From Candidatus Improbicoccus devescovinae (GTDB lineage Bacteria; Bacillota; Clostridia; Oscillospirales; Acutalibacteraceae), in NCBI GenBank assembly GCA_036245095.1, contig BSWA01000002.1, positions 2,691 through 66,690 on the forward strand: a DNA stretch of 64,000 nt. Reading direction: 5' to 3'. A program made the translations under genes and the position numbers. Below the pieces are notes generated by a model. It was not told where the DNA came from. It made no database searches and saw only the letters and a program-made list of their open reading frames with translations. This document shows positions 10,592-58,291 of the stretch, one piece after another. The number at the start of each line of letters is the position of its first letter. The stretch's first letter is position 1.

Positions 10592-10810
10592 TAGACTTCT
10601 TTCCAAACTAAACAATTACAAATACCGGAGATTAAATTACACCAAATTGCAATTCAAAGAATAAAAATTAAAAATATTATTAGTTTTATTAAACGTTTTA
10701 AAGTTTTAGCCGATAAATACAAAAACCGTAGAAAACGTTTTGGTCTCCGGTGTAATTTGATCTCCGGTATTTGTAATTTTGATCTGATTGTTTAGTTTGG
10801 AAAAAGTCTA
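10592..10810. mobile_element. 219-bp palindromic derivative built from two inverted copies of the IS-C right end (MITE-like)
   Basis: Starts TAGACTTCTTTCCAAACTAAACAATT and ends AATTGTTTAGTTTGGAAAAAGTCTA. The interior is the last roughly 150 bp of the IS-C transposase gene (..FIKRFKVLADKYKNRRKRFGLRCNLISG). Confidence 0.7.
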
Positions 10811-10862
10811 TTTTTTTATTGACAATATTTTTTTAAAATTTAAACTTATACTACACTTTTTT

Positions 10863-10940
10863 GCGCCTGTAGCTCAGCTGGATTAGAGTATTTGGCTACG
10901 AACCAAAAGGTCGGGGGTTCGAATCCCTCCAGGCGTACCA
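10863..10940 (+). tRNA. tRNA-Arg (anticodon ACG), CCA encoded
   Basis: Hand-folded cloverleaf. Acceptor GCGCCTG/CAGGCGT, anticodon stem TTTGG/CCAAA, loop CTACGAA, T arm GGGGG-TTCGAAT-CCCTC. Confidence 0.9.
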
Positions 10941-11212
10941 TCATCAAACCATAATTTTGATACAAGCCAGAATCGCAGTAATACTGCGGGTTTTAACGTT
11001 TAGGAGAAAATTTTAAAGTCTGATTTTTTAAATTTTTAAACCCAAAAGCGCATTTGTGCACACACCTCGGAGGAAAAGTTTCATTGTGCACCAGGCTAAC
11101 AAATGCAGTAAATATGCCATTTTTGCGAAAAAATCCATCTCACGGCAACCGTAAAAAAAATTGTGAAAATAGAGCATAATTTAAGTAATAAAACACGGAG
11201 GGGCAAAGTCTC

Positions 11213-11581
11213 ATGAGTGATATCAGTGAAGAAAGATTACAAGAATTAAAAGATTTAGCAAAACTTCTTGCTGTAAATGGTGTTAGAAATAATACGGAAT
11301 TAGAAAATTTACACGCTGGACGAGGACCTTCATCGGTTGTTGGAGATTATTCTGATATTAAGGCACTATCGCCTTATGGAGAAATCGAATGGAATAGGCT
11401 TTCTCGTATTAGCGATAAAGAAATGCGATCACTTATGTTAAGCATAGAGCGTGCACTAGAGAATACACTAATTTCATATGAAAAAGCCGATCAAAAAACG
11501 AAAAAGGACATACTAAAATTTTTCAAAATCCAACGGTCATATGATTATGATATTTCATGTTCATCGTCCACAAAAATATAA
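11213..11581 (+). CDS. hypothetical protein (122 aa), island-borne
   Basis: GGAGGGG RBS. Identical copy at 56488-56856. No motif recognised. Confidence 0.6.
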   Translation: MSDISEERLQELKDLAKLLAVNGVRNNTELENLHAGRGPSSVVGDYSDIKALSPYGEIEWNRLSRISDKEMRSLMLSIERALENTLISYEKADQKTKKDILKFFKIQRSYDYDISCSSSTKI

Positions 11582-11929
11582 CTATTTCATTGATTTTAAG
11601 AGCGGTATAATATTTTGCAAATCTCCGTCCGCCACCATCAATGTTTTTATGTTTTCTGCCGTCAATGTTTCAACAAAATTTATAATTTTTGAAGTTGAAC
11701 GGCTGTAACGGCTTAGATTTTCGGCTATTATCGCGTCTATTTTATAATGTTTAATTAATTCATAAATTTTTTCAAATCCATCTTGTTTTTTACCAATTTC
11801 TTTGATCACATTAACAACTTCAAAACCGCACAGTGCTGCGTAATCCCTTGTGTTTTGTTCTTGAAGATCTAATGCTTTATTGGCATTGTTACTTGTTGCC
11901 ACGCGGCAGTATAAAATTGCTTTTTTCAT
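11582..11929 (-). CDS. small serine-recombinase catalytic-domain protein, probably inactive (catalytic Ser replaced by Ala)
   Basis: MKKAILYCRVATSN aligns with the resolvase YxRVSTxxQ motif with S->A. AENLSRYSRS replaces the conserved DRLxR. No DNA-binding domain. Start taken at the internal ATG just after the stop of the large recombinase. Confidence 0.55.
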   Translation of the reverse strand: MKKAILYCRVATSNNANKALDLQEQNTRDYAALCGFEVVNVIKEIGKKQDGFEKIYELIKHYKIDAIIAENLSRYSRSTSKIINFVETLTAENIKTLMVADGDLQNIIPLLKSMK

Positions 11930-11937
11930 AAATTGCT

Positions 11938-13287
11938 CTAACTGCCGTTGTTGCAGGCATTTTGATTGCTCCTTTCTAAAGATTTTTGTCTTGCTTTTTC
12001 TTTCATTTCTGGCGTCCAAGATTCACTTCGAGACTTGTAACTCCACACTTTTCGCATAATTGTCCCGTTCTGAAAAATAAAATTGAGACTTCCAGCTTTG
12101 GAAATCTCAATCAGATTTATTTCTTTGAATTTTTCCTTAAATTTTTCTTCGTTAAATTCCGATAAATTAAGTATTTCTGCTATTTTTGATTTCAAAATTT
12201 CCTCAGGAACTTGTTTTGAACTGCATTCAAATTTGCCTTTTAGGTTAAACGATGAACAAATCCAAACTGCTTTTTCATATTTTGTTCCGACGCCATTAAT
12301 TTTCCTTCTATAATTTTTACCGCAGATTTCGCATTTTATCTTGCTTGTGAACAGGTATTTTGATTCTGATTTTAGTTTGTTTTTAGGCTTGTAAATTTCA
12401 GCTCTTCTTCTAATTTCATTTTGAACTTTATCAAAAATTTCTCTGTCAATTATTGCTTCATGACTGTTTTTGACCAGATACATTGGCAATTCACCGCTAT
12501 TTTTAATCTTTTTCTTCTCAAGATGATTATTGACGTATGTTTTCTGAAAAAGCATATCGCCGACATATTTTTCATTTCTTAAAATTTTATCAATTGTGCT
12601 TTCGTTCCAAAAATCACTGATTTTCGGCTTTATTTTAAGTTTATTAAGCTTCTTCATAATGGCGTTTTTGCCTAATCCTTCAAGGTAATTTTTAAAAATT
12701 ATTTTTATGATTTTGGCTTCTTTAGTAGTTATTTCTAGTCTGCCGTTTTTTAATTCATATCCATAAATTTTAAAATTGTTCGGTATCCCTGATTTGAATT
12801 TCTTTCTCAGTTTCCATTTGCAATTTTCAGAAACAACTCTTGATTCTTCTTGTGCATAGCTCGCAAGAATTGTAAGCATCAGCTCGCCATCTTCACTCAG
12901 ACTGTGAATTTTTTCCTGTTCAAAATAGACGTCAACACTCAAATTTTTGAGTTCTCTGGTAATTAAGAGCATATCCACCGTGTTTCTCGCAAATCTAGTG
13001 ATTGACTTACAAATAATCATATCGATTTTGCCTTTACGACAGTCTTGAATAAGCTTTTGAAATTCAGGCCTCTCGCCTTTTGTGCCGGTATAGGCTTTAT
13101 CAATGTAAACTCCTGTATATTCCCAATTTTTATGATTTTGGATATAATCGCTGTAATAACTGACTTGCGCTGACAATGAATGGAGCATCGCCTCTTTGCC
13201 GTCAGAAACTCTGGCGTAAGCCACAACACATTTTTTATTCAAAAAGTGACAGTTTTTTGGCTCAATTTTTGTAATATTTTTCTTCAT
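11938..13287 (-). CDS. large serine recombinase (449 aa)
   Basis: YARVSD catalytic motif, SITRFARN, recombinase domain, Cys-rich zinc ribbon (CEICGKNY...WICSS...ECSSK). Confidence 0.85.
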   Translation of the reverse strand: MKKNITKIEPKNCHFLNKKCVVAYARVSDGKEAMLHSLSAQVSYYSDYIQNHKNWEYTGVYIDKAYTGTKGERPEFQKLIQDCRKGKIDMIICKSITRFARNTVDMLLITRELKNLSVDVYFEQEKIHSLSEDGELMLTILASYAQEESRVVSENCKWKLRKKFKSGIPNNFKIYGYELKNGRLEITTKEAKIIKIIFKNYLEGLGKNAIMKKLNKLKIKPKISDFWNESTIDKILRNEKYVGDMLFQKTYVNNHLEKKKIKNSGELPMYLVKNSHEAIIDREIFDKVQNEIRRRAEIYKPKNKLKSESKYLFTSKIKCEICGKNYRRKINGVGTKYEKAVWICSSFNLKGKFECSSKQVPEEILKSKIAEILNLSEFNEEKFKEKFKEINLIEISKAGSLNFIFQNGTIMRKVWSYKSRSESWTPEMKEKARQKSLERSNQNACNNGS

Positions 13288-13335
13288 AATTTTTTAATCC
13301 TCCATTCATATATATCCATATATTAAGGCTATTAG

Positions 13336-13518
13336 TCAAGGTTTAATGCGGTTTTTCAGGTGATTTAGCTCACCAAAAATTGGTTTGTATTTTTTGATTA
13401 ATTTGTCATTAACTACATCAAAATCTTTTTTGGAAATAACGCTGTTTTTAAGCATAGATTTTATAAGTAAAATTGAAATTTGATAATTTTTTTCGCGTTC
13501 AAATTGTTTATCTGTCAT
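13336..13518 (-). CDS. small conserved hypothetical protein (60 aa) next to the recombinase
   Basis: ORF overlaps the antirepressor stop by 11 nt. Identical second copy. Function unknown. Confidence 0.45.
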   Translation of the reverse strand: MTDKQFEREKNYQISILLIKSMLKNSVISKKDFDVVNDKLIKKYKPIFGELNHLKNRIKP

Positions 13519-14301
13519 TTAGCCGCACCACGCCAAGAAAGTAATTTACAAAATATTGCTGACCTTTACCTGTAACTTTAGTGGTTTTATTTACAGTGAT
13601 GTGCCCGTCAGAATGAGTAATTGCGGTTTCTTTTATTTTGAAAAGTTCCAGTTCCATCGATTTTTGTGTCGGCATATTGTAATCAGTACCGTTACGTTTT
13701 ATGAGATATCCGTCTTGACGAAGCTTTTCGAATAAACGATTTTGTCCGATTTCGATACCGTTACCTTTCAGAATTTTTGCGAGTTCGCCAATTAAAATTG
13801 TGCCATCGGAAACTGAGACAGCATCTGCAAAAATTACTTTCGGCTTATCTTTTTTAGACTGAATTTGCAGATATTCTTTTTCAGCACGCTCAATTTTTAA
13901 AGCCTGTGCCATTTCGATGAGCAAATCAGGATTATTTAGTAGTTCTTTTGTGGCATACATTCCGTGTTTGCGGATGGATGGCAAGACTTCATCGAAAACC
14001 CAACGTTCAAATTTTTCTGCTTTTAATTTTATTTCAGAATTTTTGTTCTGGTCAGCTGCTTTGATTATCAGACGATAAACATCGCCTTCAGAGATTACGT
14101 TCGTTTCTTGAATTCCTCCAACCGAAGGTATTCCCAACTTGGAAATACCTTTGCAGTGGTCGTGAACTGCTTTACTTGGGTTGGCATAATCTAAATTTTT
14201 TGCGACATCAATGCTAACAAAATGAGGTGAGGATTACCCTCAATTAAAATTGTTCTAATTTCGCCAAATTCCTCATTTTTAAAAATTGTAAGTTCATTCA
14301 T
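13508..14301 (-). pseudogene. phage antirepressor (BRO-N/AntA N-terminus + KilAC C-terminus) frameshifted by a 5-bp duplication
   Basis: N-terminus MNELTIFKNEEFGEIRTILIEGNP is in one frame. The rest (HFVSIDVAKNLDYANPSKAVHDH...KilAC) is in another. A tandem CCTCA CCTCA (coding strand; 14223-14232 on plus) causes the shift. Confidence 0.75.
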
Positions 14302-14377
14302 ATTAAAAAATCCTCCAAAATTTAATTTAAAATTAAGCATGAAAAAGGAGCCGTTTTACGGCTCCAAGTAATAATAT

Positions 14378-14785
14378 TTATGGGCTTTTGTAACGAAAAT
14401 TAATGTAACATTGATGACTGCAATAAATTCTTTTGCTATTTTGATAATCTGTAAATTTCTTGCCGCAATGCTTACAAATTACTATATTTTTGGGCTTATT
14501 TGTATAGATATTTCGATTTTTGTTCCAGCAACGATTTTTACAAGTTTTACAGCAAAATTTCTCTGGTTTAGTTTTTTTATCCAGAATCAGCGCTTTGCTG
14601 CAGTTTTTACAAAAATTTTGAGATTTATCATCTTTTATTTTCAAAACTTTAAAATTATTCCGTCTACAAAACGACTTGATTGTGTTTGCTGAAACTCCAG
14701 TAACTCCTGCAATTTTAGTATAGCTTTCACCATCTTCTCGCATTCTCTGAATTTTAAATCTTTGCGTCGTATCCAACAAAATCAC
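14378..14785 (-). CDS. small HTH (sigma-70 region-4-like) plus Cys-rich zinc-ribbon protein
   Basis: ESYTKIAGVTGVSANTIKSFCRRN helix-turn-helix followed by CxxC pairs (CKNC, CKTC, CKHC, CSHQC). GTG start. Confidence 0.6.
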   Translation of the reverse strand: MILLDTTQRFKIQRMREDGESYTKIAGVTGVSANTIKSFCRRNNFKVLKIKDDKSQNFCKNCSKALILDKKTKPEKFCCKTCKNRCWNKNRNIYTNKPKNIVICKHCGKKFTDYQNSKRIYCSHQCYINFRYKSP

Positions 14786-14786
14786 C

Positions 14787-15611
14787 TCAGCTGTTAGGAA
14801 TTTTCAAAACTTGTCCGGGATAAATTTTATCGCCGATAATGCCGTTAAGTTCCGCAATCTTACGCCATCTTGTACCGCTTCCAAGTTTCATCAAGGCAAC
14901 GCCCCATAATGTATCATCTGTGACCACAGTGTAAGTGTGGTAATTCGGTTGGTTTACTGAAATTGACTCGTTTTTTTAAAATCCATTTAGACCATTAGTT
15001 TTCATAATCTGCGGATAATCTTTGTAGCTTTCGTTTAAATCAACATTTCCGCTAATTCCATCGATTTTGCCTTGATCAGACTTCTGCCAAATCCCGCAAT
15101 TTATCGAAGGTTTGGTGGTATTCCACTGAGCGAGCCACAAATCAAATTCATTCAAAAGTTCATCTTTATTGAGATAATTTTGAAGCCAATTTAGGTTCAT
15201 ATAAATCATTGCATAATAGCCTGAATCTTCGATTTTTTCACAGAAAGCCTTACAAATGTTGGTTTTTTGGCGATTTGTGAGCGCCAACATCGTACGATCT
15301 TCAATGTCAAAAATTATTGGGTATTCAAATTGCTTGTTTGCGATATTTTTTAGACAAAATTCAGCCTCCAAAACGGCATCGTTTGCGGAATCTGCATAAG
15401 AATAATGATATGAACCTATGCAAATCCCTGCTGATTTTGCACCTGCGTAGTTTTGTTCGAAAAATTTATCTTTTTGGTTAGGTGATTCTTTTCCCCAGCC
15501 GGACCTGATTATTGCAAACTCCACGCCATTGTTTTTGGACTTTTGCCAATTAATATTGACGTTCCACTTTGAGACATCAATTCCGTTAAATTTCATATTC
15601 TTAACCTCCAA
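14787..15611 (-). pseudogene. GH25 muramidase-LysM endolysin split by an in-frame TAA (GH25 part 14976-15611, LysM part 14787-14975)
   Basis: The GH25 ORF ends ...NGLNGF-TAA. The same frame continues KNESISVNQPNYHTYTVVTDDTLWGVALMKLGSGTRWRKIAELNGIIGDKIYPGQVLKIPNS-TGA, a canonical LysM domain. Confidence 0.7.
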
Positions 15612-15815
15612 TTATGTTCTTTGCAAATTCATACGTGCCTGTTGACCCAAGCAAAATAGGAATTAAATTGAAAATTCCCAAAACTATGCCATTAAATGAA
15701 AAATCGCCCACAATGAAGTGCACCCCTTTGTTAAACTTAGACTTTTGTCTAAATTTTGGGGTGCAGTTCACAAAGGCGATTCTTACGATTGTTACAATAC
15801 TTGAAATTATTAAAT
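15601..15815 (-). pseudogene. holin remnant (3' two-thirds only; 5' end deleted at the IS-A junction)
   Basis: Matches 52254-52468 of the intact holin-like gene in copy 2. Homology stops at 15815, where truncated IS-A begins. Confidence 0.7.
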
Positions 15816-16671
15816 AAATTGGATTTTTATGTCTAAATATGATTTAATAATATCGGTGATGAAAATTGACAAGATATGAAAAAGCTATGAGATTACAAGA
15901 TGCAGATTTTAAGCAATTAATAGGTGTAAAAAAAGAAACTTATAGTGCGATGATTGCTCAGCTTCAAATAGCTTACGCTGAAAAGCACAAACGTCGAGGC
16001 AGGCACACAAAATTAACACTTCAAGATCAATTATTTATGGCTTTGAAGTACTGGCGACAGTATGTGACACAAAAAGAATTGGCATTTGAGTTTGAGGTTG
16101 GCGAAGCAACAACGCACGACACAATCGTTTGGGTCGAAGATACACTGATTAAAAGCAGAAAATTCAGTTTACCCGGCAAAAAAGCATTACTTGAAAATAA
16201 CGAGATAGAAATTGTGGTTGTTGATGTTATGGAAAGTCCGGTCGAACGCCCTAAAAAAAACAGCGTCAGTGGTATTCAGGAAAGAAAAAAAGGCATACCA
16301 TAAAAACGCAACTAATTGTAAATCGACAAACAAAAGATATTATCTGTATTGCCCATGCTGAAGGAAAAACTCACGACTTTAAACTTTATGAGGAAAGTAT
16401 AGGATATGCGATTTCAAATGATAAAAAAGTCCAAGGAGACAGCGGTTATCAGGGAATTTTGAGATTACACAAAAACAGCGAAACTCCAAAGAAAAAACCA
16501 AGAAAAGGCACACTCACTGCCGAAGAAAAATCTGAAAATCGGCGTATTTCAAAAGAACGAATCATAATTGAAAACATAAATGCAAAAATTAAAGTTTTTA
16601 AAATAGTAGCAAACAAATACCGTAATCGACGTACTCGGTTTAAATTAAGAATGTCTTTGTTGTGCGGATTA
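15816..16671 (+). mobile_element. IS-A copy 1: lacks the first roughly 12 nt of its left end, 3' end interrupted by IS-B
   Basis: orfA (15866-16303) is identical to the two other copies. orfB is readable in the -1 frame. Sequence diverges from IS-A at 16672, where the IS-B terminal repeat starts. Confidence 0.8.
16253..16260 (+). promoter_or_regulatory. A8 slippery run: candidate programmed -1 frameshift site joining IS-A orfA and orfB
   Basis: CCT AAA AAA AAC. A -1 slip gives PKKKQRQWYSGKKKRHTIKTQ..., stop-free into the DDE region (GDSGYQG, IIENINAKIK). Same run in all three copies. Confidence 0.5.
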
Positions 16672-17039
16672 GATAGTGTCTACACAAAATTTGACATTCT
16701 TAAATCAATGAAATAAACTTAAAAACTATGAATAATTTACAAAACAGACATGATTTAAAAAACGAACAATGGCTTAAAATAGAACCGATAATCAAGAGAA
16801 CGAATCATAATTGAAAACATAAATGCAAAAATTAAAGTTTTTAAAATAGTAGCAAACAAATACCGTAATCGACGTACTCGGTTTAAATTAAGAATGTCTT
16901 TGTTGTGCGGATTAGATAGTGTCTACACAAAATTTGACATTCTTAAATCAATGAAATAAACTTAAAAACTATGAATAATTTACAAAACAGACATGATTTA
17001 AAAAACGAACAATGGCTTAAAATAGAACCGATAATCAAG
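16554..17039. repeat. 243-bp tandem duplication (2 units) spanning the IS-A/IS-B junction
   Basis: 16554-16796 repeats at 16797-17039. Each unit has the last roughly 118 bp of interrupted IS-A plus the first 125 bp of IS-B. Confidence 0.85.
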
Positions 17040-45199: not shown

Positions 45200-45700
45200 G
45201 TGAAAAAAGCTTATATAAAAGATTTGATGATTAAAAATGTCATGCCAATTCTAACTGTCGATAAAATCGATGAAATCGCCAAAAAGATTTGCGACCTCTC
45301 TAAAGAAAGAAAGTAACATAGATGTTCTTACAATACTTAAAAAGAAAATACGCGAAAATGAAACTGCAACAGAAAATTTAATAAAAGCTCTTGAATCAGG
45401 AAACGCCATCGAAGTCATTTCTGCTCAAATCGAAAAAAGACAACTTGAGAAACAAAATTTAGAAGTTCAACTTGCGAGAGAAAAAATCCTGAAATCTCAA
45501 CTCAAATTTGAACAAGTTAAATTTTTCTTTAGCAGATTTTAAAAAGGTAATGTCAATAACATAAATTTTCGCCGTTCTTTGATAGATACTTTTATCAATA
45601 AAATTCACCTGTATGACAGTAAACTTCATATCTTTTGCAATGCTCAAGACTCCAAAGTAGAAATGCCATTAGATAAACTTAAGAGTTCGTCTAATGGCTG
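45200..45700 (+). pseudogene. C-terminal remnant of a second large serine recombinase (5' truncated by IS-C, at least 2 frameshifts)
   Basis: Three frames together read ..ILKKKIRENETATENLIKALESGNAIEVISAQIEKRQLEKQNLEVQLAREKI.. / ..NFRRSLIDTFINKIHLYDSKLHIFCNAQD... This is the coiled-coil and tail typical of large serine recombinases. Confidence 0.6.
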
Positions 45701-45702
45701 TG

Positions 45703-45793
45703 TGGTGGAGAGACGGGGATTTGAACCCCGGAAACTGTTTTGCAGTTTATATGATTTCCAATCATACTCCTTCGGCCACTCGGACACCTCTCC
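45703..45793 (-). tRNA. tRNA-Ser (anticodon GGA), long variable arm, CCA encoded
   Basis: Reverse complement GGAGAGGTGTCCGAGTGG...TATGA-TTGGAAA-TCATA...CGGGG-TTCAAAT-CCCCG-TCTCTCC-A-CCA folds as a class II tRNA. Confidence 0.9.
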
Positions 45794-51197: not shown

Positions 51198-52099
51198 TAG
51201 ACCTCCTCGGAAATTAATTTTCAAAATTAATTAATCCGCACAACAAAGACATTCTTAATTTAAACCGAGTACGTCGATTACGGTATTTGTTTGCTACTAT
51301 TTTAAAAACTTTAATTTTTGCATTTATGTTTTCAATTATGATTCGTTCTTTTGAAATACGCCGATTTTCAGATTTTTCTTCGGCAGTGAGTGTGCTTTTT
51401 CTTGGTTTTTCTTTGGAGTTTCGCTGTTTTTGTGTAATCTCAAAATTCCCTGATAACCGCTGTCTCCTTGGACTTTTTTATCATTTGAAATCGCATATCC
51501 TATACTTTCCTCATAAAGTTTAAAGTCGTGAGTTTTTCCTTCAGCATGGGCAATACAGATAATATCTTTTGTTTGTCGATTTACAATTAGTTGCGTGTTT
51601 ATGGTATGCCTTTTTTTCTTTCCTGAATACCACTGACGCTGTTTTTTTTAGGGCGTTCGACCGGACTTTCCATAACATCAACAACCACAATTTCTATCTC
51701 GTTATTTTCAAGTAATGCTTTTTTGCCGGGTAAACTGAATTTTCTGCTTTTAATCAGTGTATCTTCGACCCAAACGATTGTGTCGTGCGTTGTTGCTTCG
51801 CCAACCTCAAACTCAAATGCCAATTCTTTTTGTGTCACATACTGTCGCCAGTACTTCAAAGCCATAAATAATTGATCTTGAAGTGTTAATTTTGTGTGCC
51901 TGCCTCGACGTTTGTGCTTTTCAGCGTAAGCTATTTGAAGCTGAGCAATCATCGCACTGTAAGTTTCTTTTTTTACACCTATTAATTGCTTAAAATCTGC
52001 ATCTTGTAATCTCATAGCTTTTTCATATCTTGTCAATTTTCATCACCGATATTATTAAATCATATTTAGACATAAAAATCCAATTTCCGAAGAGGTCTA
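51198..52099 (-). mobile_element. IS-A copy 2 (902 bp); orfA intact, orfB frameshifted
   Basis: Both terminal repeats are present (TAGACCTCCTCGGAAATT ... AATTTCCGAAGAGGTCTA). orfA is 51599-52036. Relative to copy 3 it has a one-base shorter homopolymer (T5 vs T6 on the plus strand, about 51406-51410) plus one substitution. Confidence 0.85.
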
Positions 52100-52120
52100 T
52101 TATTTTTCGAAGGAATCAAA

Positions 52121-52468
52121 ATGAGCGAAAATTTTAATCTTAATCAATTTTTAACCGAAGAAATGTTCTTGAGTTTGGCGAGTTGTATATTGATCGTTAC
52201 TGGTGGTGTTAAATTTTTCAAGAATTATACAAATTTAAGTCCGCTTTGGCTGAATTTAATAATTTCAAGTATTGTAACAATCGTAAGAATCGCCTTTGTG
52301 AACTGCACCCCAAAATTTAGACAAAAGTCTAAGTTTAACAAAGGGGTGCACTTCATTGTGGGCGATTTTTCATTTAATGGCATAGTTTTGGGAATTTTCA
52401 ATTTAATTCCTATTTTGCTTGGGTCAACAGGCACGTATGAATTTGCAAAGAACATAATTGGAGGTTAA
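52121..52468 (+). CDS. holin-like small membrane protein (intact only in this copy)
   Basis: 115 aa with three hydrophobic segments. It overlaps the start of the lysin gene by 11 nt, a typical lysis-cassette layout. Confidence 0.55.
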   Translation: MSENFNLNQFLTEEMFLSLASCILIVTGGVKFFKNYTNLSPLWLNLIISSIVTIVRIAFVNCTPKFRQKSKFNKGVHFIVGDFSFNGIVLGIFNLIPILLGSTGTYEFAKNIIGG

Positions 52469-53282
52469 GAATATGAAATTTAACGGAATTGATGTCTCAA
52501 AGTGGAACGTCAATATTAATTGGCAAAAGTCCAAAAACAATGGCGTGGAGTTTGCAATAATCAGGTCCGGCTGGGGAAAAGAATCACCTAACCAAAAAGA
52601 TAAATTTTTCGAACAAAACTACGCAGGTGCAAAATCAGCAGGGATTTGCATAGGTTCATATCATTATTCTTATGCAGATTCCGCAAACGATGCCGTTTTG
52701 GAGGCTGAATTTTGTCTAAAAAATATCGCAAACAAGCAATTTGAATACCCAATAATTTTTGACATTGAAGATCGTACGATGTTGGCGCTCACAAATCGCC
52801 AAAAAACCAACATTTGTAAGGCTTTCTGTGAAAAAATCGAAGATTCAGGCTATTATGCAATGATTTATATGAACCTAAATTGGCTTCAAAATTATCTCAA
52901 TAAAGATGAACTTTTGAATGAATTTGATTTGTGGCTCGCTCAGTGGAATACCACCAAACCTTCGATAAATTGCGGGATTTGGCAGAAGTCTGATCAAGGC
53001 AAAATCGATGGAATTAGCGGAAATGTTGATTTAAACGAAAGCTACAAAGATTATCCGCAGATTATGAAAACTAATGGTCTAAATGGATTTTAAAAAAACG
53101 AGTCAATTTCAGTAAACCAACCGAATTACCACACTTACACTGTGGTCACAGATGATACATTATGGGGCGTTGCCTTGATGAAACTTGGAAGCGGTACAAG
53201 ATGGCGTAAGATTGCGGAACTTAACGGCATTATCGGCGATAAAATTTATCCCGGACAAGTTTTGAAAATTCCTAACAGCTGA
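52458..53282 (+). pseudogene. GH25 muramidase-LysM endolysin split by an in-frame TAA (53091-53093)
   Basis: Identical to 14787-15611. 63 further in-frame codons encode the LysM domain. Confidence 0.7.
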
Positions 53283-53283
53283 G

Positions 53284-53691
53284 GTGATTTTGTTGGATAC
53301 GACGCAAAGATTTAAAATTCAGAGAATGCGAGAAGATGGTGAAAGCTATACTAAAATTGCAGGAGTTACTGGAGTTTCAGCAAACACAATCAAGTCGTTT
53401 TGTAGACGGAATAATTTTAAAGTTTTGAAAATAAAAGATGATAAATCTCAAAATTTTTGTAAAAACTGCAGCAAAGCGCTGATTCTGGATAAAAAAACTA
53501 AACCAGAGAAATTTTGCTGTAAAACTTGTAAAAATCGTTGCTGGAACAAAAATCGAAATATCTATACAAATAAGCCCAAAAATATAGTAATTTGTAAGCA
53601 TTGCGGCAAGAAATTTACAGATTATCAAAATAGCAAAAGAATTTATTGCAGTCATCAATGTTACATTAATTTTCGTTACAAAAGCCCATAA
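53284..53691 (+). CDS. small HTH plus zinc-ribbon protein (copy 2)
   Basis: Identical translation to 14378-14785. Confidence 0.6.
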   Translation: MILLDTTQRFKIQRMREDGESYTKIAGVTGVSANTIKSFCRRNNFKVLKIKDDKSQNFCKNCSKALILDKKTKPEKFCCKTCKNRCWNKNRNIYTNKPKNIVICKHCGKKFTDYQNSKRIYCSHQCYINFRYKSP

Positions 53692-53767
53692 ATATTATTA
53701 CTTGGAGCCGTAAAACGGCTCCTTTTTCATGCTTAATTTTAAATTAAATTTTGGAGGATTTTTTAAT

Positions 53768-54561
53768 ATGAATGAACTTACAATTTTTAAAAATGAGGAA
53801 TTTGGCGAAATTAGAACAATTTTAATTGAGGGTAATCCTCACCTCATTTTGTTAGCATTGATGTCGCAAAAAATTTAGATTATGCCAACCCAAGTAAAGC
53901 AGTTCACGACCACTGCAAAGGTATTTCCAAGTTGGGAATACCTTCGGTTGGAGGAATTCAAGAAACGAACGTAATCTCTGAAGGCGATGTTTATCGTCTG
54001 ATAATCAAAGCAGCTGACCAGAACAAAAATTCTGAAATAAAATTAAAAGCAGAAAAATTTGAACGTTGGGTTTTCGATGAAGTCTTGCCATCCATCCGCA
54101 AACACGGAATGTATGCCACAAAAGAACTACTAAATAATCCTGATTTGCTCATCGAAATGGCACAGGCTTTAAAAATTGAGCGTGCTGAAAAAGAATATCT
54201 GCAAATTCAGTCTAAAAAAGATAAGCCGAAAGTAATTTTTGCAGATGCTGTCTCAGTTTCCGATGGCACAATTTTAATTGGCGAACTCGCAAAAATTCTG
54301 AAAGGTAACGGTATCGAAATCGGACAAAATCGTTTATTCGAAAAGCTTCGTCAAGACGGATATCTCATAAAACGTAACGGTACTGATTACAATATGCCGA
54401 CACAAAAATCGATGGAACTGGAACTTTTCAAAATAAAAGAAACCGCAATTACTCATTCTGACGGGCACATCACTGTAAATAAAACCACTAAAGTTACAGG
54501 TAAAGGTCAGCAATATTTTGTAAATTACTTTCTTGGCGTGGTGCGGCTAAATGACAGATAA
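53768..54561 (+). pseudogene. phage antirepressor (BRO-N + KilAC) with the 5-bp CCTCA duplication frameshift at 53837-53846
   Basis: Identical to copy 1. Removing one CCTCA restores ...IEGNPHFVSIDVAKNLDYANPSKAVHDH... Confidence 0.75.
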
Positions 54562-54733
54562 ACAATTTGAACGCGAAAAAAATTATCAAATTTCAATTTT
54601 ACTTATAAAATCTATGCTTAAAAACAGCGTTATTTCCAAAAAAGATTTTGATGTAGTTAATGACAAATTAATCAAAAAATACAAACCAATTTTTGGTGAG
54701 CTAAATCACCTGAAAAACCGCATTAAACCTTGA
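54551..54733 (+). CDS. small hypothetical protein (copy 2)
   Basis: Identical translation to 13336-13518. Confidence 0.45.
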   Translation: MTDKQFEREKNYQISILLIKSMLKNSVISKKDFDVVNDKLIKKYKPIFGELNHLKNRIKP

Positions 54734-54781
54734 CTAATAGCCTTAATATATGGATATATATGAATGGAGGATTAAAAAATT

Positions 54782-56131
54782 ATGAAGAAAAATATTACAA
54801 AAATTGAGCCAAAAAACTGTCACTTTTTGAATAAAAAATGTGTTGTGGCTTACGCCAGAGTTTCTGACGGCAAAGAGGCGATGCTCCATTCATTGTCAGC
54901 GCAAGTCAGTTATTACAGCGATTATATCCAAAATCATAAAAATTGGGAATATACAGGAGTTTACATTGATAAAGCCTATACCGGCACAAAAGGCGAGAGG
55001 CCTGAATTTCAAAAGCTTATTCAAGACTGTCGTAAAGGCAAAATCGATATGATTATTTGTAAGTCAATCACTAGATTTGCGAGAAACACGGTGGATATGC
55101 TCTTAATTACCAGAGAACTCAAAAATTTGAGTGTTGACGTCTATTTTGAACAGGAAAAAATTCACAGTCTGAGTGAAGATGGCGAGCTGATGCTTACAAT
55201 TCTTGCGAGCTATGCACAAGAAGAATCAAGAGTTGTTTCTGAAAATTGCAAATGGAAACTGAGAAAGAAATTCAAATCAGGGATACCGAACAATTTTAAA
55301 ATTTATGGATATGAATTAAAAAACGGCAGACTAGAAATAACTACTAAAGAAGCCAAAATCATAAAAATAATTTTTAAAAATTACCTTGAAGGATTAGGCA
55401 AAAACGCCATTATGAAGAAGCTTAATAAACTTAAAATAAAGCCGAAAATCAGTGATTTTTGGAACGAAAGCACAATTGATAAAATTTTAAGAAATGAAAA
55501 ATATGTCGGCGATATGCTTTTTCAGAAAACATACGTCAATAATCATCTTGAGAAGAAAAAGATTAAAAATAGCGGTGAATTGCCAATGTATCTGGTCAAA
55601 AACAGTCATGAAGCAATAATTGACAGAGAAATTTTTGATAAAGTTCAAAATGAAATTAGAAGAAGAGCTGAAATTTACAAGCCTAAAAACAAACTAAAAT
55701 CAGAATCAAAATACCTGTTCACAAGCAAGATAAAATGCGAAATCTGCGGTAAAAATTATAGAAGGAAAATTAATGGCGTCGGAACAAAATATGAAAAAGC
55801 AGTTTGGATTTGTTCATCGTTTAACCTAAAAGGCAAATTTGAATGCAGTTCAAAACAAGTTCCTGAGGAAATTTTGAAATCAAAAATAGCAGAAATACTT
55901 AATTTATCGGAATTTAACGAAGAAAAATTTAAGGAAAAATTCAAAGAAATAAATCTGATTGAGATTTCCAAAGCTGGAAGTCTCAATTTTATTTTTCAGA
56001 ACGGGACAATTATGCGAAAAGTGTGGAGTTACAAGTCTCGAAGTGAATCTTGGACGCCAGAAATGAAAGAAAAAGCAAGACAAAAATCTTTAGAAAGGAG
56101 CAATCAAAATGCCTGCAACAACGGCAGTTAG
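54782..56131 (+). CDS. large serine recombinase (copy 2)
   Basis: Identical translation to 11938-13287. Confidence 0.85.
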   Translation: MKKNITKIEPKNCHFLNKKCVVAYARVSDGKEAMLHSLSAQVSYYSDYIQNHKNWEYTGVYIDKAYTGTKGERPEFQKLIQDCRKGKIDMIICKSITRFARNTVDMLLITRELKNLSVDVYFEQEKIHSLSEDGELMLTILASYAQEESRVVSENCKWKLRKKFKSGIPNNFKIYGYELKNGRLEITTKEAKIIKIIFKNYLEGLGKNAIMKKLNKLKIKPKISDFWNESTIDKILRNEKYVGDMLFQKTYVNNHLEKKKIKNSGELPMYLVKNSHEAIIDREIFDKVQNEIRRRAEIYKPKNKLKSESKYLFTSKIKCEICGKNYRRKINGVGTKYEKAVWICSSFNLKGKFECSSKQVPEEILKSKIAEILNLSEFNEEKFKEKFKEINLIEISKAGSLNFIFQNGTIMRKVWSYKSRSESWTPEMKEKARQKSLERSNQNACNNGS

Positions 56132-56139
56132 AGCAATTT

Positions 56140-56487
56140 ATGAAAAAAGCAATTTTATACTGCCGCGTGGCAACAAGTAACAATGCCAATAAAGCATTAG
56201 ATCTTCAAGAACAAAACACAAGGGATTACGCAGCACTGTGCGGTTTTGAAGTTGTTAATGTGATCAAAGAAATTGGTAAAAAACAAGATGGATTTGAAAA
56301 AATTTATGAATTAATTAAACATTATAAAATAGACGCGATAATAGCCGAAAATCTAAGCCGTTACAGCCGTTCAACTTCAAAAATTATAAATTTTGTTGAA
56401 ACATTGACGGCAGAAAACATAAAAACATTGATGGTGGCGGACGGAGATTTGCAAAATATTATACCGCTCTTAAAATCAATGAAATAG
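56140..56487 (+). CDS. small degenerate serine-recombinase catalytic-domain protein (copy 2)
   Basis: Identical to 11582-11929. Confidence 0.55.
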   Translation: MKKAILYCRVATSNNANKALDLQEQNTRDYAALCGFEVVNVIKEIGKKQDGFEKIYELIKHYKIDAIIAENLSRYSRSTSKIINFVETLTAENIKTLMVADGDLQNIIPLLKSMK

Positions 56488-56856
56488 TTATATTTTTGTG
56501 GACGATGAACATGAAATATCATAATCATATGACCGTTGGATTTTGAAAAATTTTAGTATGTCCTTTTTCGTTTTTTGATCGGCTTTTTCATATGAAATTA
56601 GTGTATTCTCTAGTGCACGCTCTATGCTTAACATAAGTGATCGCATTTCTTTATCGCTAATACGAGAAAGCCTATTCCATTCGATTTCTCCATAAGGCGA
56701 TAGTGCCTTAATATCAGAATAATCTCCAACAACCGATGAAGGTCCTCGTCCAGCGTGTAAATTTTCTAATTCCGTATTATTTCTAACACCATTTACAGCA
56801 AGAAGTTTTGCTAAATCTTTTAATTCTTGTAATCTTTCTTCACTGATATCACTCAT
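56488..56856 (-). CDS. hypothetical protein (122 aa, copy 2)
   Basis: Identical translation to 11213-11581. Confidence 0.6.
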   Translation of the reverse strand: MSDISEERLQELKDLAKLLAVNGVRNNTELENLHAGRGPSSVVGDYSDIKALSPYGEIEWNRLSRISDKEMRSLMLSIERALENTLISYEKADQKTKKDILKFFKIQRSYDYDISCSSSTKI

Positions 56857-57128
56857 GAGACTTTGCCCCTCCGTGTTTTATTACTTAAATTATGCTCTAT
56901 TTTCACAATTTTTTTTACGGTTGCCGTGAGATGGATTTTTTCGCAAAAATGGCATATTTACTGCATTTGTTAGCCTGGTGCACAATGAAACTTTTCCTCC
57001 GAGGTGTGTGCACAAATGCGCTTTTGGGTTTAAAAATTTAAAAAATCAGACTTTAAAATTTTCTCCTAAACGTTAAAACCCGCAGTATTACTGCGATTCT
57101 GGCTTGTATCAAAATTATGGTTTGATGA

Positions 57129-57214
57129 TGGTGCCGACAGTGGGACTTGAACCCACACACAGTCGCCTGCAACGGATTTTGAGTCCGTCTCGTCTACCAT
57201 TCCAACACGTCGGC
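57129..57214 (-). tRNA. tRNA-Leu (anticodon CAA), long variable arm, CCA encoded
   Basis: Reverse complement GCCGACG..ACGGA-CTCAAAA-TCCGT..GTGGG-TTCAAGT-CCCAC-TGTCGGC-A-CCA. 86 nt. Confidence 0.9.
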
Positions 57215-57388: not shown

Positions 57389-58291
57389 TAGACCTCCTCG
57401 GAAATTAATTTTCAAAATTAATTAATCCGCACAACAAAGACATTCTTAATTTAAACCGAGTACGTCGATTACGGTATTTGTTTGCTACTATTTTAAAAAC
57501 TTTAATTTTTGCATTTATGTTTTCAATTATGATTCGTTCTTTTGAAATACGCCGATTTTCAGATTTTTCTTCGGCAGTGAGTGTGCCTTTTCTTGGTTTT
57601 TTCTTTGGAGTTTCGCTGTTTTTGTGTAATCTCAAAATTCCCTGATAACCGCTGTCTCCTTGGACTTTTTTATCATTTGAAATCGCATATCCTATACTTT
57701 CCTCATAAAGTTTAAAGTCGTGAGTTTTTCCTTCAGCATGGGCAATACAGATAATATCTTTTGTTTGTCGATTTACAATTAGTTGCGTGTTTATGGTATG
57801 CCTTTTTTTCTTTCCTGAATACCACTGACGCTGTTTTTTTTAGGGCGTTCGACCGGACTTTCCATAACATCAACAACCACAATTTCTATCTCGTTATTTT
57901 CAAGTAATGCTTTTTTGCCGGGTAAACTGAATTTTCTGCTTTTAATCAGTGTATCTTCGACCCAAACGATTGTGTCGTGCGTTGTTGCTTCGCCAACCTC
58001 AAACTCAAATGCCAATTCTTTTTGTGTCACATACTGTCGCCAGTACTTCAAAGCCATAAATAATTGATCTTGAAGTGTTAATTTTGTGTGCCTGCCTCGA
58101 CGTTTGTGCTTTTCAGCGTAAGCTATTTGAAGCTGAGCAATCATCGCACTGTAAGTTTCTTTTTTTACACCTATTAATTGCTTAAAATCTGCATCTTGTA
58201 ATCTCATAGCTTTTTCATATCTTGTCAATTTTCATCACCGATATTATTAAATCATATTTAGACATAAAAATCCAATTTCCGAAGAGGTCTA
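57389..58291 (-). mobile_element. IS-A copy 3 (903 bp), the only apparently intact copy
   Basis: Both terminal repeats, orfA 57791-58228, A8 slip site, and an orfB frame open to 57405 (..GDSGYQGILRLHKNSETPKKKPRKGTLTAEEK..LLCGLINFEN). Confidence 0.85.

Follow-up and report, generated by a model that had tools for sequence, protein, structure and literature searches.

Identical inverted repeats that begin at the CCA ends of two tRNA genes in Candidatus Improbicoccus devescovinae are very probably prophage remnants placed by a large serine recombinase

The window analysed here, a 64,000-nucleotide stretch of contig BSWA01000002.1 from Candidatus Improbicoccus devescovinae (assembly GCA_036245095.1), contains two identical arms in opposite orientation, each of which begins at the end of a tRNA gene, and it raises the question of how the same DNA came to lie directly behind two unrelated tRNAs. 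tRNA 3' ends are the textbook target of tyrosine integrases, and in reviews and the main island databases integration at tRNA genes is ascribed to that enzyme family. From comparisons with other genomes and with viral contigs, we consider it very probable that the arms are the attL ends of temperate-phage remnants that were placed at tRNA 3' ends by a large serine recombinase, with the crossover in the terminal CA.

Both ARAGORN and Rfam identify tRNA-Arg(ACG) (10863-10940, forward strand), the first occupied target, and tRNA-Leu(CAA) (57129-57214, reverse strand), the second. The former is preceded by a promoter-like site (10819-10846, forward strand; TTGACA, 16 nt, TAAACT), recognized by consensus match only. 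When the whole 1.08-Mb genome was searched by BLAST, the left arm (10937-15815, forward strand) recurred once and inverted, as the reverse complement of the right arm (52254-57132, reverse strand), with 100% identity over 4,879 nt. The identity begins at ACCA, the sole tRNA bases common to the two genes at the boundary, and from the first nucleotide after the CCA (+1) the sequence is the same behind both. The sequence-only reading of this DNA had placed the start of both arms just after the CCA of two unrelated tRNA genes and had noted that these share only ACCA there; the tRNA calls and the exact start of the BLAST match agree with it on both points. A start at +1 after the CCA is found for 9 of the 9 trailers in this genome and for more than 20 in other genomes. 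Because the genome holds only ~47 tRNA-like 3' ends in 1.08 Mb, and yet all of these trailers start at +1, chance is a negligible cause. The perfect 4.9-kb inverted repeats (10937-15815 and 52254-57132) flank 36 kb of chromosomal genes, and homologous recombination between them could invert this intervening 36 kb.

The left arm opens with a non-coding trailer of 272 nt (10941-11212, forward strand) and continues with a 122-aa ORF (11213-11581, forward strand), which has no assigned function and of which one genome of the same family holds a 65%-identical copy; neither this ORF nor a 115-aa ORF of the right arm matched Pfam or PHROGs. Next, on the reverse strand (11582-12019; right-arm copy 56050-56487), is the gene for a small protein of ~116-145 aa that consists of a resolvase catalytic domain only. 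This protein has alanine at the nucleophile position (RVATS here, RIASS in G002 at L028:8989-9384) and is kept end to end, to its last residues, in G002 (47% identity); it may act as a partner of the large recombinases, or regulate them, without itself being catalytic. The adjoining reverse-strand gene (11938-13287) encodes a 449-aa protein of the phage integrase family phrog_95, with Resolvase (PF00239, E=5e-32), Recombinase (PF07508, E=7e-23) and Zn_ribbon (PF13408, E=3e-9) domains and, by alignment, a YARVS motif with the serine nucleophile intact, a composition that places it by sequence among the large serine recombinases (serine integrases). No DUF4368 was detected in the arm proteins at E<=0.01, and a domain search of the arms found no tyrosine recombinase gene. 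Farther from the tRNA, and likewise on the reverse strand, are genes for a phage anti-repressor with Bro-N and KilAC/ANT domains (13508-14137), a phage HTH protein (phrog_2308; 14378-14785), which lies upstream of the recombinases in relatives too, and a GH25 endolysin (14976-15611).

The left arm is truncated by an 856-nt insertion sequence (IS) with HTH_Tnp_4 and DDE_Tnp_4 domains (15816-16671, forward strand) and the right arm by a copy of the same IS (51232-52086, reverse strand), a further copy of which lies beyond tRNA-Leu (57423-58278, reverse strand); the 1.08-Mb genome has more than 20 full-length copies. On the right, the IS is separated from the shared sequence by 167 nt of phage DNA exclusive to that arm (52087-52253, reverse strand), which contains the 5' end of the 115-aa ORF (52121-52468), upstream of the endolysin. 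Both arms retain the first large recombinase and the small protein, and an IS of one and the same family closes each of them. Neither has a counterpart of the second large recombinase found in nearly all relatives, so that the enzymes that placed the arms are no longer there as an intact set. From this gene content, and from the ending of both arms at the 856-nt IS, we conclude that the arm is the integrase-proximal end of a prophage that has been trimmed by IS activity. The serine-recombinase identity that had been proposed for the element stands, with the correction that it is a prophage remnant and not a self-contained island. The genome also holds many copies of at least one other IS, and a 243-nt tandem duplication is present within IS debris at 16549-17034.

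At tRNA-Arg, the putative crossover dinucleotide is the CA at 10939-10940, flanked by the 3' part of the tRNA (~10913-10938, forward strand) as B half-site and by 10941-10966 (forward strand) as P' half-site. The P' half-site contains a conserved outer motif, TTTGATACAA, at positions 16-25 outward from the CA, and half-site alignment found it, with unchanged register, in 17 P' and 8 P arms. In the congener G001 (contig C62), the trailer is preceded by sequence that is not tRNA-like and that mirrors the first 26 nt of the trailer in the conserved motif, so that the junction looks like an attP-like site with the dyad-symmetric structure P-CA-P'. The same P arm occurs on contig C4 of the present genome (G000:C4) near 12365, with 85% identity over 165 nt. 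Because the homology halts exactly after the CA and unrelated DNA follows, this junction is, on its sequence, an attR; a search for the tRNA formerly paired with it on C4 identified no candidate. The site as a whole is dyad-symmetric around a 2-bp centre, and the element ends lack long direct repeats, as is the case for att sites of serine integrases. Neither a tRNA 3' copy carried by the element nor a tRNA fragment at its far end was found, the identity being limited to ACCA between the arms and to CCA between attL and attR of a complete relative. The accepted model of serine integrases has a different motif spacing in attB than in attP, and no such difference was seen in these half-sites. 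In a deposited gut phage (PV036431.1), whose recombinase is 50% identical, the attP showed no CA centre in the expected register. The attP-like site of G001 (L025:1306-2907) is located ~600 nt from a Mg-chelatase/ComM-like gene, a family that is the commonest reported target of site-specific serine integrases (PMC10083194).

On the chromosomal side of the junction, positions 17-23 of the 11 tRNA/tmRNA arms are taken up by the universal tRNA bases 52-58 of the T-stem and T-loop, which agree with the motif at positions 17, 19, 20 and 23 and supply a pyrimidine at position 18; A73 is present in 11 of the 11 arms. These agreements hint at an enzyme that recognizes the T-loop together with the CCA end, and many tRNAs would be able to serve as sites for such an enzyme. 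The T-loop match, at four or five of seven positions, could also be coincidental. The sole difference between the tRNA-Arg(ACG) of this genome and those of two congeners is at the discriminator base, A73 here and G73 there, and this A73 may have made it a target. The idea that the A73 came from the element itself was dropped, as the P arms are without A at that position.

Relatives of the 449-aa recombinase (~40-58% identity) are present in many Bacillota genomes and gut viral contigs, and those at 46-58% identity nearly always have a second serine recombinase of ~530 aa directly downstream, with a three-gene version of the tandem in G002. The order of holin, endolysin, HTH protein, recombinase pair and element end matches that of deposited gut phages and of the streptococcal phage Phi1207.3 (PMC4260502). 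A tRNA or tmRNA converges on the recombinase pair at 6 of 43 genome loci and 9 of 31 viral-contig loci, and the element start is again at +1 after the CCA. Because many relatives of the pair do not adjoin a tRNA, tRNA targeting is a trait of sub-lineages and not of the whole clade. Nearly identical elements are found at the tmRNA of one Christensenellales genome and at tRNA-Glu(CTC) of another, an Acholeplasma/Izemoplasmatales family occupies tRNA-Leu genes with the anticodons GAG, CAA and CAG, and a human-gut family is at three tmRNA variants in 14 of the 42 junctions collected.

A complete relative is available in the Christensenellales genome G423 as a 55.6-kb prophage with genes for tape measure, portal, methyltransferase, helicase, primase and polymerase, and with its attL at tRNA-Glu(CTC). 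Its attR consists of the P arm, the CA and then a GC-rich hairpin with a T-run, which is how a displaced native tRNA terminator would be expected to look. Tyrosine recombinases need a 6-8 bp overlap. The G423 attL and attR have nothing beyond CCA in common, and attR contains no second copy of a tRNA fragment; an identity of 3 bp, of the size left by serine integrases, does not suffice for tyrosine recombinases. The sole PF07508 genes of the prophage are the two serine recombinases beside attL, and a search inside it for PF00589 (tyrosine integrase) gave no hit. An exact-match scan of metagenome contigs with the reconstructed tRNA-Glu attB found nothing, as did exact-pattern scans of viral contigs with two trailers and the reconstructed G423 attP, and 30 relatives of G423 that were searched for the host flank beyond attR gave no match and hence no empty site.

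The G423 prophage bears directly on the possibility that another enzyme, either a tyrosine integrase since lost or an IS transposase, placed the element, with the serine recombinases serving for inversion or resolution. Truncated arms could have lost genes, and the Acholeplasma-type element has a tyrosine recombinase gene as well, ~2 kb from the pair. However, the complete prophage is without PF00589 and duplicates no tRNA fragment, the junction bears no relation to the IS ends, and the dyad about a 2-bp centre is of the serine-integrase style, which together make placement by another enzyme very unlikely.

The first ~270 nt of the arm could in principle belong to the tRNA and not to the element. 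A census of the 300 nt downstream of every tRNA-like gene of the genome (n=47) found the trailer behind three of them, namely tRNA-Arg(ACG), tRNA-Leu(CAA) and a degenerate tRNA-like gene (86% identity). This third gene, 81 nt long and just left of the window (G000:C2:1020-1100, L001), has an odd anticodon arm and a CCACCA end; Rfam found no tRNA or tmRNA in the region upstream of the third trailer copy, and ARAGORN reports the degenerate tRNA only when its threshold is lowered. The genuine tmRNA of this genome is on contig C4. Among congeners, the trailer (81-88% identity) is found at +1 after the CCA of tRNA-Val(TAC) in G006 and of tRNA-Leu(CAG) in G001, which places it on five different tRNA-like genes across three species, and the tRNA-Arg(ACG) of G003, G004, G007 and G008 is followed by unrelated sequence without the trailer. 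This pattern fits a mobile element landing at different tRNA ends and not a conserved native trailer.

Were the ~270-nt stretch a conserved native tRNA trailer, the arms would have formed by segmental duplication or by homologous recombination through it, and it is true that no part of the element is conserved as widely as its first 190-330 nt, that short trailer-only copies occur and that the genome is rich in IS copies and rearrangements. The short copies, however, hold the last codons of the recombinase gene, cut by IS ends, and are thus IS-cut recombinase C-termini; elsewhere the trailer runs unbroken into recombinase and phage genes, and the homology of the attP-like and attR junctions halts exactly at the CA. 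With tRNA-Arg free of the trailer in four congeners and other tRNAs carrying it elsewhere, we regard a native trailer as extremely unlikely. The sequence-only reading had offered a conserved trailer that served as a recombination site as its alternative, and this is contradicted by the 3 of 47 genes, by the variation in occupied tRNAs between species and by the run into phage genes. It had also named the same trailer behind many tRNAs with no island as evidence that would tell against a mobile element, and the whole-genome count gave those three genes only. As for the empty sites that it had proposed to look for in relatives, tRNA-Arg without the trailer was found in the four congeners, the exact pre-insertion site from a close strain was not found for any copy, and the flanks of tRNA-Arg in the congeners, too diverged, gave no alignment to this genome at the DNA or protein level. 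Its main inference, that a serine-recombinase element is specific for the tRNA CCA end, is supported and agrees with all of the comparative evidence.

The perfect identity of the arms over 4.9 kb is unusual in itself and would also result if the assembly had placed one copy twice. We examined contigs from the source sample's own runs, and these data are not independent of the assembly. One unitig spans the tRNA-Arg/trailer junction (10775-10966), the graph branches exactly at 10937, the depth of the arm is ~2x that of its flanks, and at 15815 one path enters the 167 nt exclusive to the right arm. These contigs argue against a mis-join at the tRNA/trailer junction, and the chance that the second arm is an artefact is as slight as that of a native trailer. 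Least likely of all is that the two tRNA genes were phage-borne at a genome end and not chromosomal targets, since, even though tRNA carriage is frequent in phages and no upstream synteny of tRNA-Arg with congeners was shown, tRNA-Arg(ACG) and tRNA-Leu(CAA) are the sole genes for their anticodons in the genome, tRNA-Arg is 97-99% identical to its copies in four element-free congeners, the arm identity ends at ACCA, and the tmRNA and six other single-copy tRNAs are targeted too.

If the arms are prophage ends, as we consider very probable, the tRNA would have been separated from its own terminator. The trailer contains a small hairpin at 10974-10994, as had been noticed from the sequence, with a 6-bp stem and a 3-nt loop followed by GGUUUU. 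It fails the T-run rule of the terminator scanner that we used. In the family of the window and in three others, a hairpin begins at most a few bases after the CCA and leads into U-rich sequence, with weak support in one of the four; the hairpin z-score is -2.2 for the window trailer, -7.6, -4.6 and -4.0 for three others, and only -1.2 for the Acholeplasma family. Because integration shifts the native terminator to attR, the hairpin of the element probably replaces the displaced tRNA terminator.

In the mechanism that we propose, a large serine recombinase would cross over in the terminal CA of an encoded CCA, so that the tRNA would remain intact and the element would start immediately behind it. 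The chromosomal half-site would be provided by the acceptor/T-arm portion of the tRNA, and the universal T-loop, being in register with TTTGATACAA of both phage half-sites, would render many CCA-encoding tRNA and tmRNA genes usable. The element's own hairpin would then sit directly after the tRNA and the native terminator would move to the far end, and in this genome the abundant IS would later have trimmed the phage. Which of the serine recombinases would catalyse the integration is a point that we infer. Because attR has been lost and one recombinase (the middle one in relatives) is missing, both arms are probably immobile now. Their identity would be accounted for either by re-integration of a degraded but complete element at the second tRNA, followed by loss of the distal parts of both copies, or by gene conversion that made two older copies alike as far as their homology extends. 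Serine recombinases do not re-ligate a non-palindromic central dinucleotide in the wrong alignment. We therefore rejected recombinase-mediated inversion between two attL sites as the origin of the arms, the non-palindromic CA being a block to re-ligation.

The closest published precedent that we found is that of the ssrA islands of Dehalococcoides, in which a ~540-aa serine recombinase, DsiB, lies beside attL together with a small catalytic-domain-only paralogue, DsiA (PMC3146451). By description, these islands resemble the arms in having a large serine recombinase that is beside attL and points at a tRNA-like gene (tmRNA), together with a small catalytic-domain-only protein in one module, and their elements also pile up at the target. 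Unlike the elements described here, they have their insertion point within the T-loop, a direct repeat of 20 bp and ssrA as the only target (McMurdie et al. 2011, PMC3146451), whereas the crossover here would be at CA, no tRNA sequence is duplicated, many tRNAs as well as tmRNA are used, and the elements are phages. The earlier statement that tRNA ends are not targets of large serine recombinases is broadly correct, then, but not in its absolute form, to which these islands are a published exception.

Other systems share single features. The Streptococcus pyogenes phages Phi1207.3 and Phi10394.4 have tandem serine recombinases (orf56/orf57) after holin and lysin at the right end, and phages of the Phi1207.3 type integrate at a GA dinucleotide inside comEC, disrupting the gene, with the duplicated dinucleotide as the crossover (PMC4260502). 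The streptococcal phage recombinases are ~42% identical to the 449-aa protein, and a dinucleotide crossover site is common to both; a lysis cassette followed by a large serine recombinase pair is also found in the relatives of the arms, whereas the arms of the window keep only the first large recombinase and the small protein. The target there, however, is the protein-coding comEC and not a tRNA end. In Streptococcus ICEs, two or three tandem serine integrases point at the target and the direct repeats are 2-8 bp (Ambroset et al. 2016, PMC4701971), an arrangement that resembles the tandem integrases here and the three-gene version in G002, but these elements disrupt mutT, traG and hsdM and are conjugative elements, not phages (PMC4701971). 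Tyrosine-integrase islands at tRNA and tmRNA genes (Islander; PMC4383910) have the same class of target and keep the tRNA functional; they differ in using another enzyme family, in carrying a tRNA 3' copy and in leaving a tRNA fragment at the far end. The TnpX/TndX clade, like Cp36, comprises multi-targeting recombinases marked by DUF4368, whose targets are short motifs, AT-rich or with a GA/TT core, inside protein-coding genes (Durrant et al. 2022, PMC10083194), and is alike in that one recombinase lineage uses many chromosomal sites with a common motif, but no DUF4368 was detected here. The largest survey of serine-integrase targets is confined to protein-coding genes, with no mention of tRNA in its main text (PMC10083194), reviews of streptococcal ICEs and IMEs list protein-coding targets only, and a few tycheposons that adjoin tRNAs carry a large serine recombinase. 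To our knowledge, a serine-integrase prophage at a tRNA CCA end has not been described in this form in the literature that we searched.

A second lineage of large serine recombinases, unrelated to the first and here called type 2, has left a C-terminal remnant in the window (45255-45702, forward strand) that abuts the CCA of tRNA-Ser(GGA) (45703-45793, reverse strand; ARAGORN and Rfam). The reading frame of this remnant is interrupted by a stop at 45542, an IS end near 45230 cuts it, and the recombinase remnants have no Pfam match. The type-2 trailer (~72-94% identity between copies) is also found after tRNA-Ser(TGA), tRNA-Ala(CGC), tRNA-Val(CAC), tRNA-Ser(CGA) and the tmRNA. Full-length type-2 relatives in congeners end at the CCA of tRNA-Ala or tRNA-Ser, and this bears out the third serine-recombinase remnant that had been reported at the 3' end of tRNA-Ser(GGA) from the sequence. 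The type-2 recombinase of G008 has 484 aa with Resolvase, Recombinase and Zn_ribbon domains, and one full-length type-2 recombinase is 23% identical to the second recombinase of the other lineage. The type-2 targets have the common 3' end (C)TCC(A/G)CCA. In all, serine-recombinase scars from the two unrelated lineages are present at 9 of the 47 tRNA-like genes (eight tRNA-like genes and the tmRNA).

A wider proposition, which in our judgement could fall either way, is that phage serine-integrase pairs read the T-loop and the terminal CCA with A73, that almost every tRNA or tmRNA gene with an encoded CCA could be used as a site, that the phage brings a replacement terminator, and that an unrelated lineage has converged on the same ends, about one fifth of which are occupied in this genome. 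If serine integrases exist that have the CCA end of many tRNAs and of tmRNA as their natural site and a 2-bp crossover that spares the tRNA, island finders that require a repeat of a tRNA fragment would miss a whole class of prophages. The scars help to explain the phage DNA and the large inverted repeats in a 1-Mb endosymbiont genome.

Two further arrangements were observed among the relatives. In a human-gut phage family (L083:4230-7690; L084, L128, L130, L146, L152), a second large-serine-recombinase pair converges on the attP-like junction from the other side. In G005 (L029, G005:C6:12496-14800), a homologous recombinase gene lies ~500 nt downstream of the tmRNA and is co-directional with it, a geometry unlike that of all other cases.
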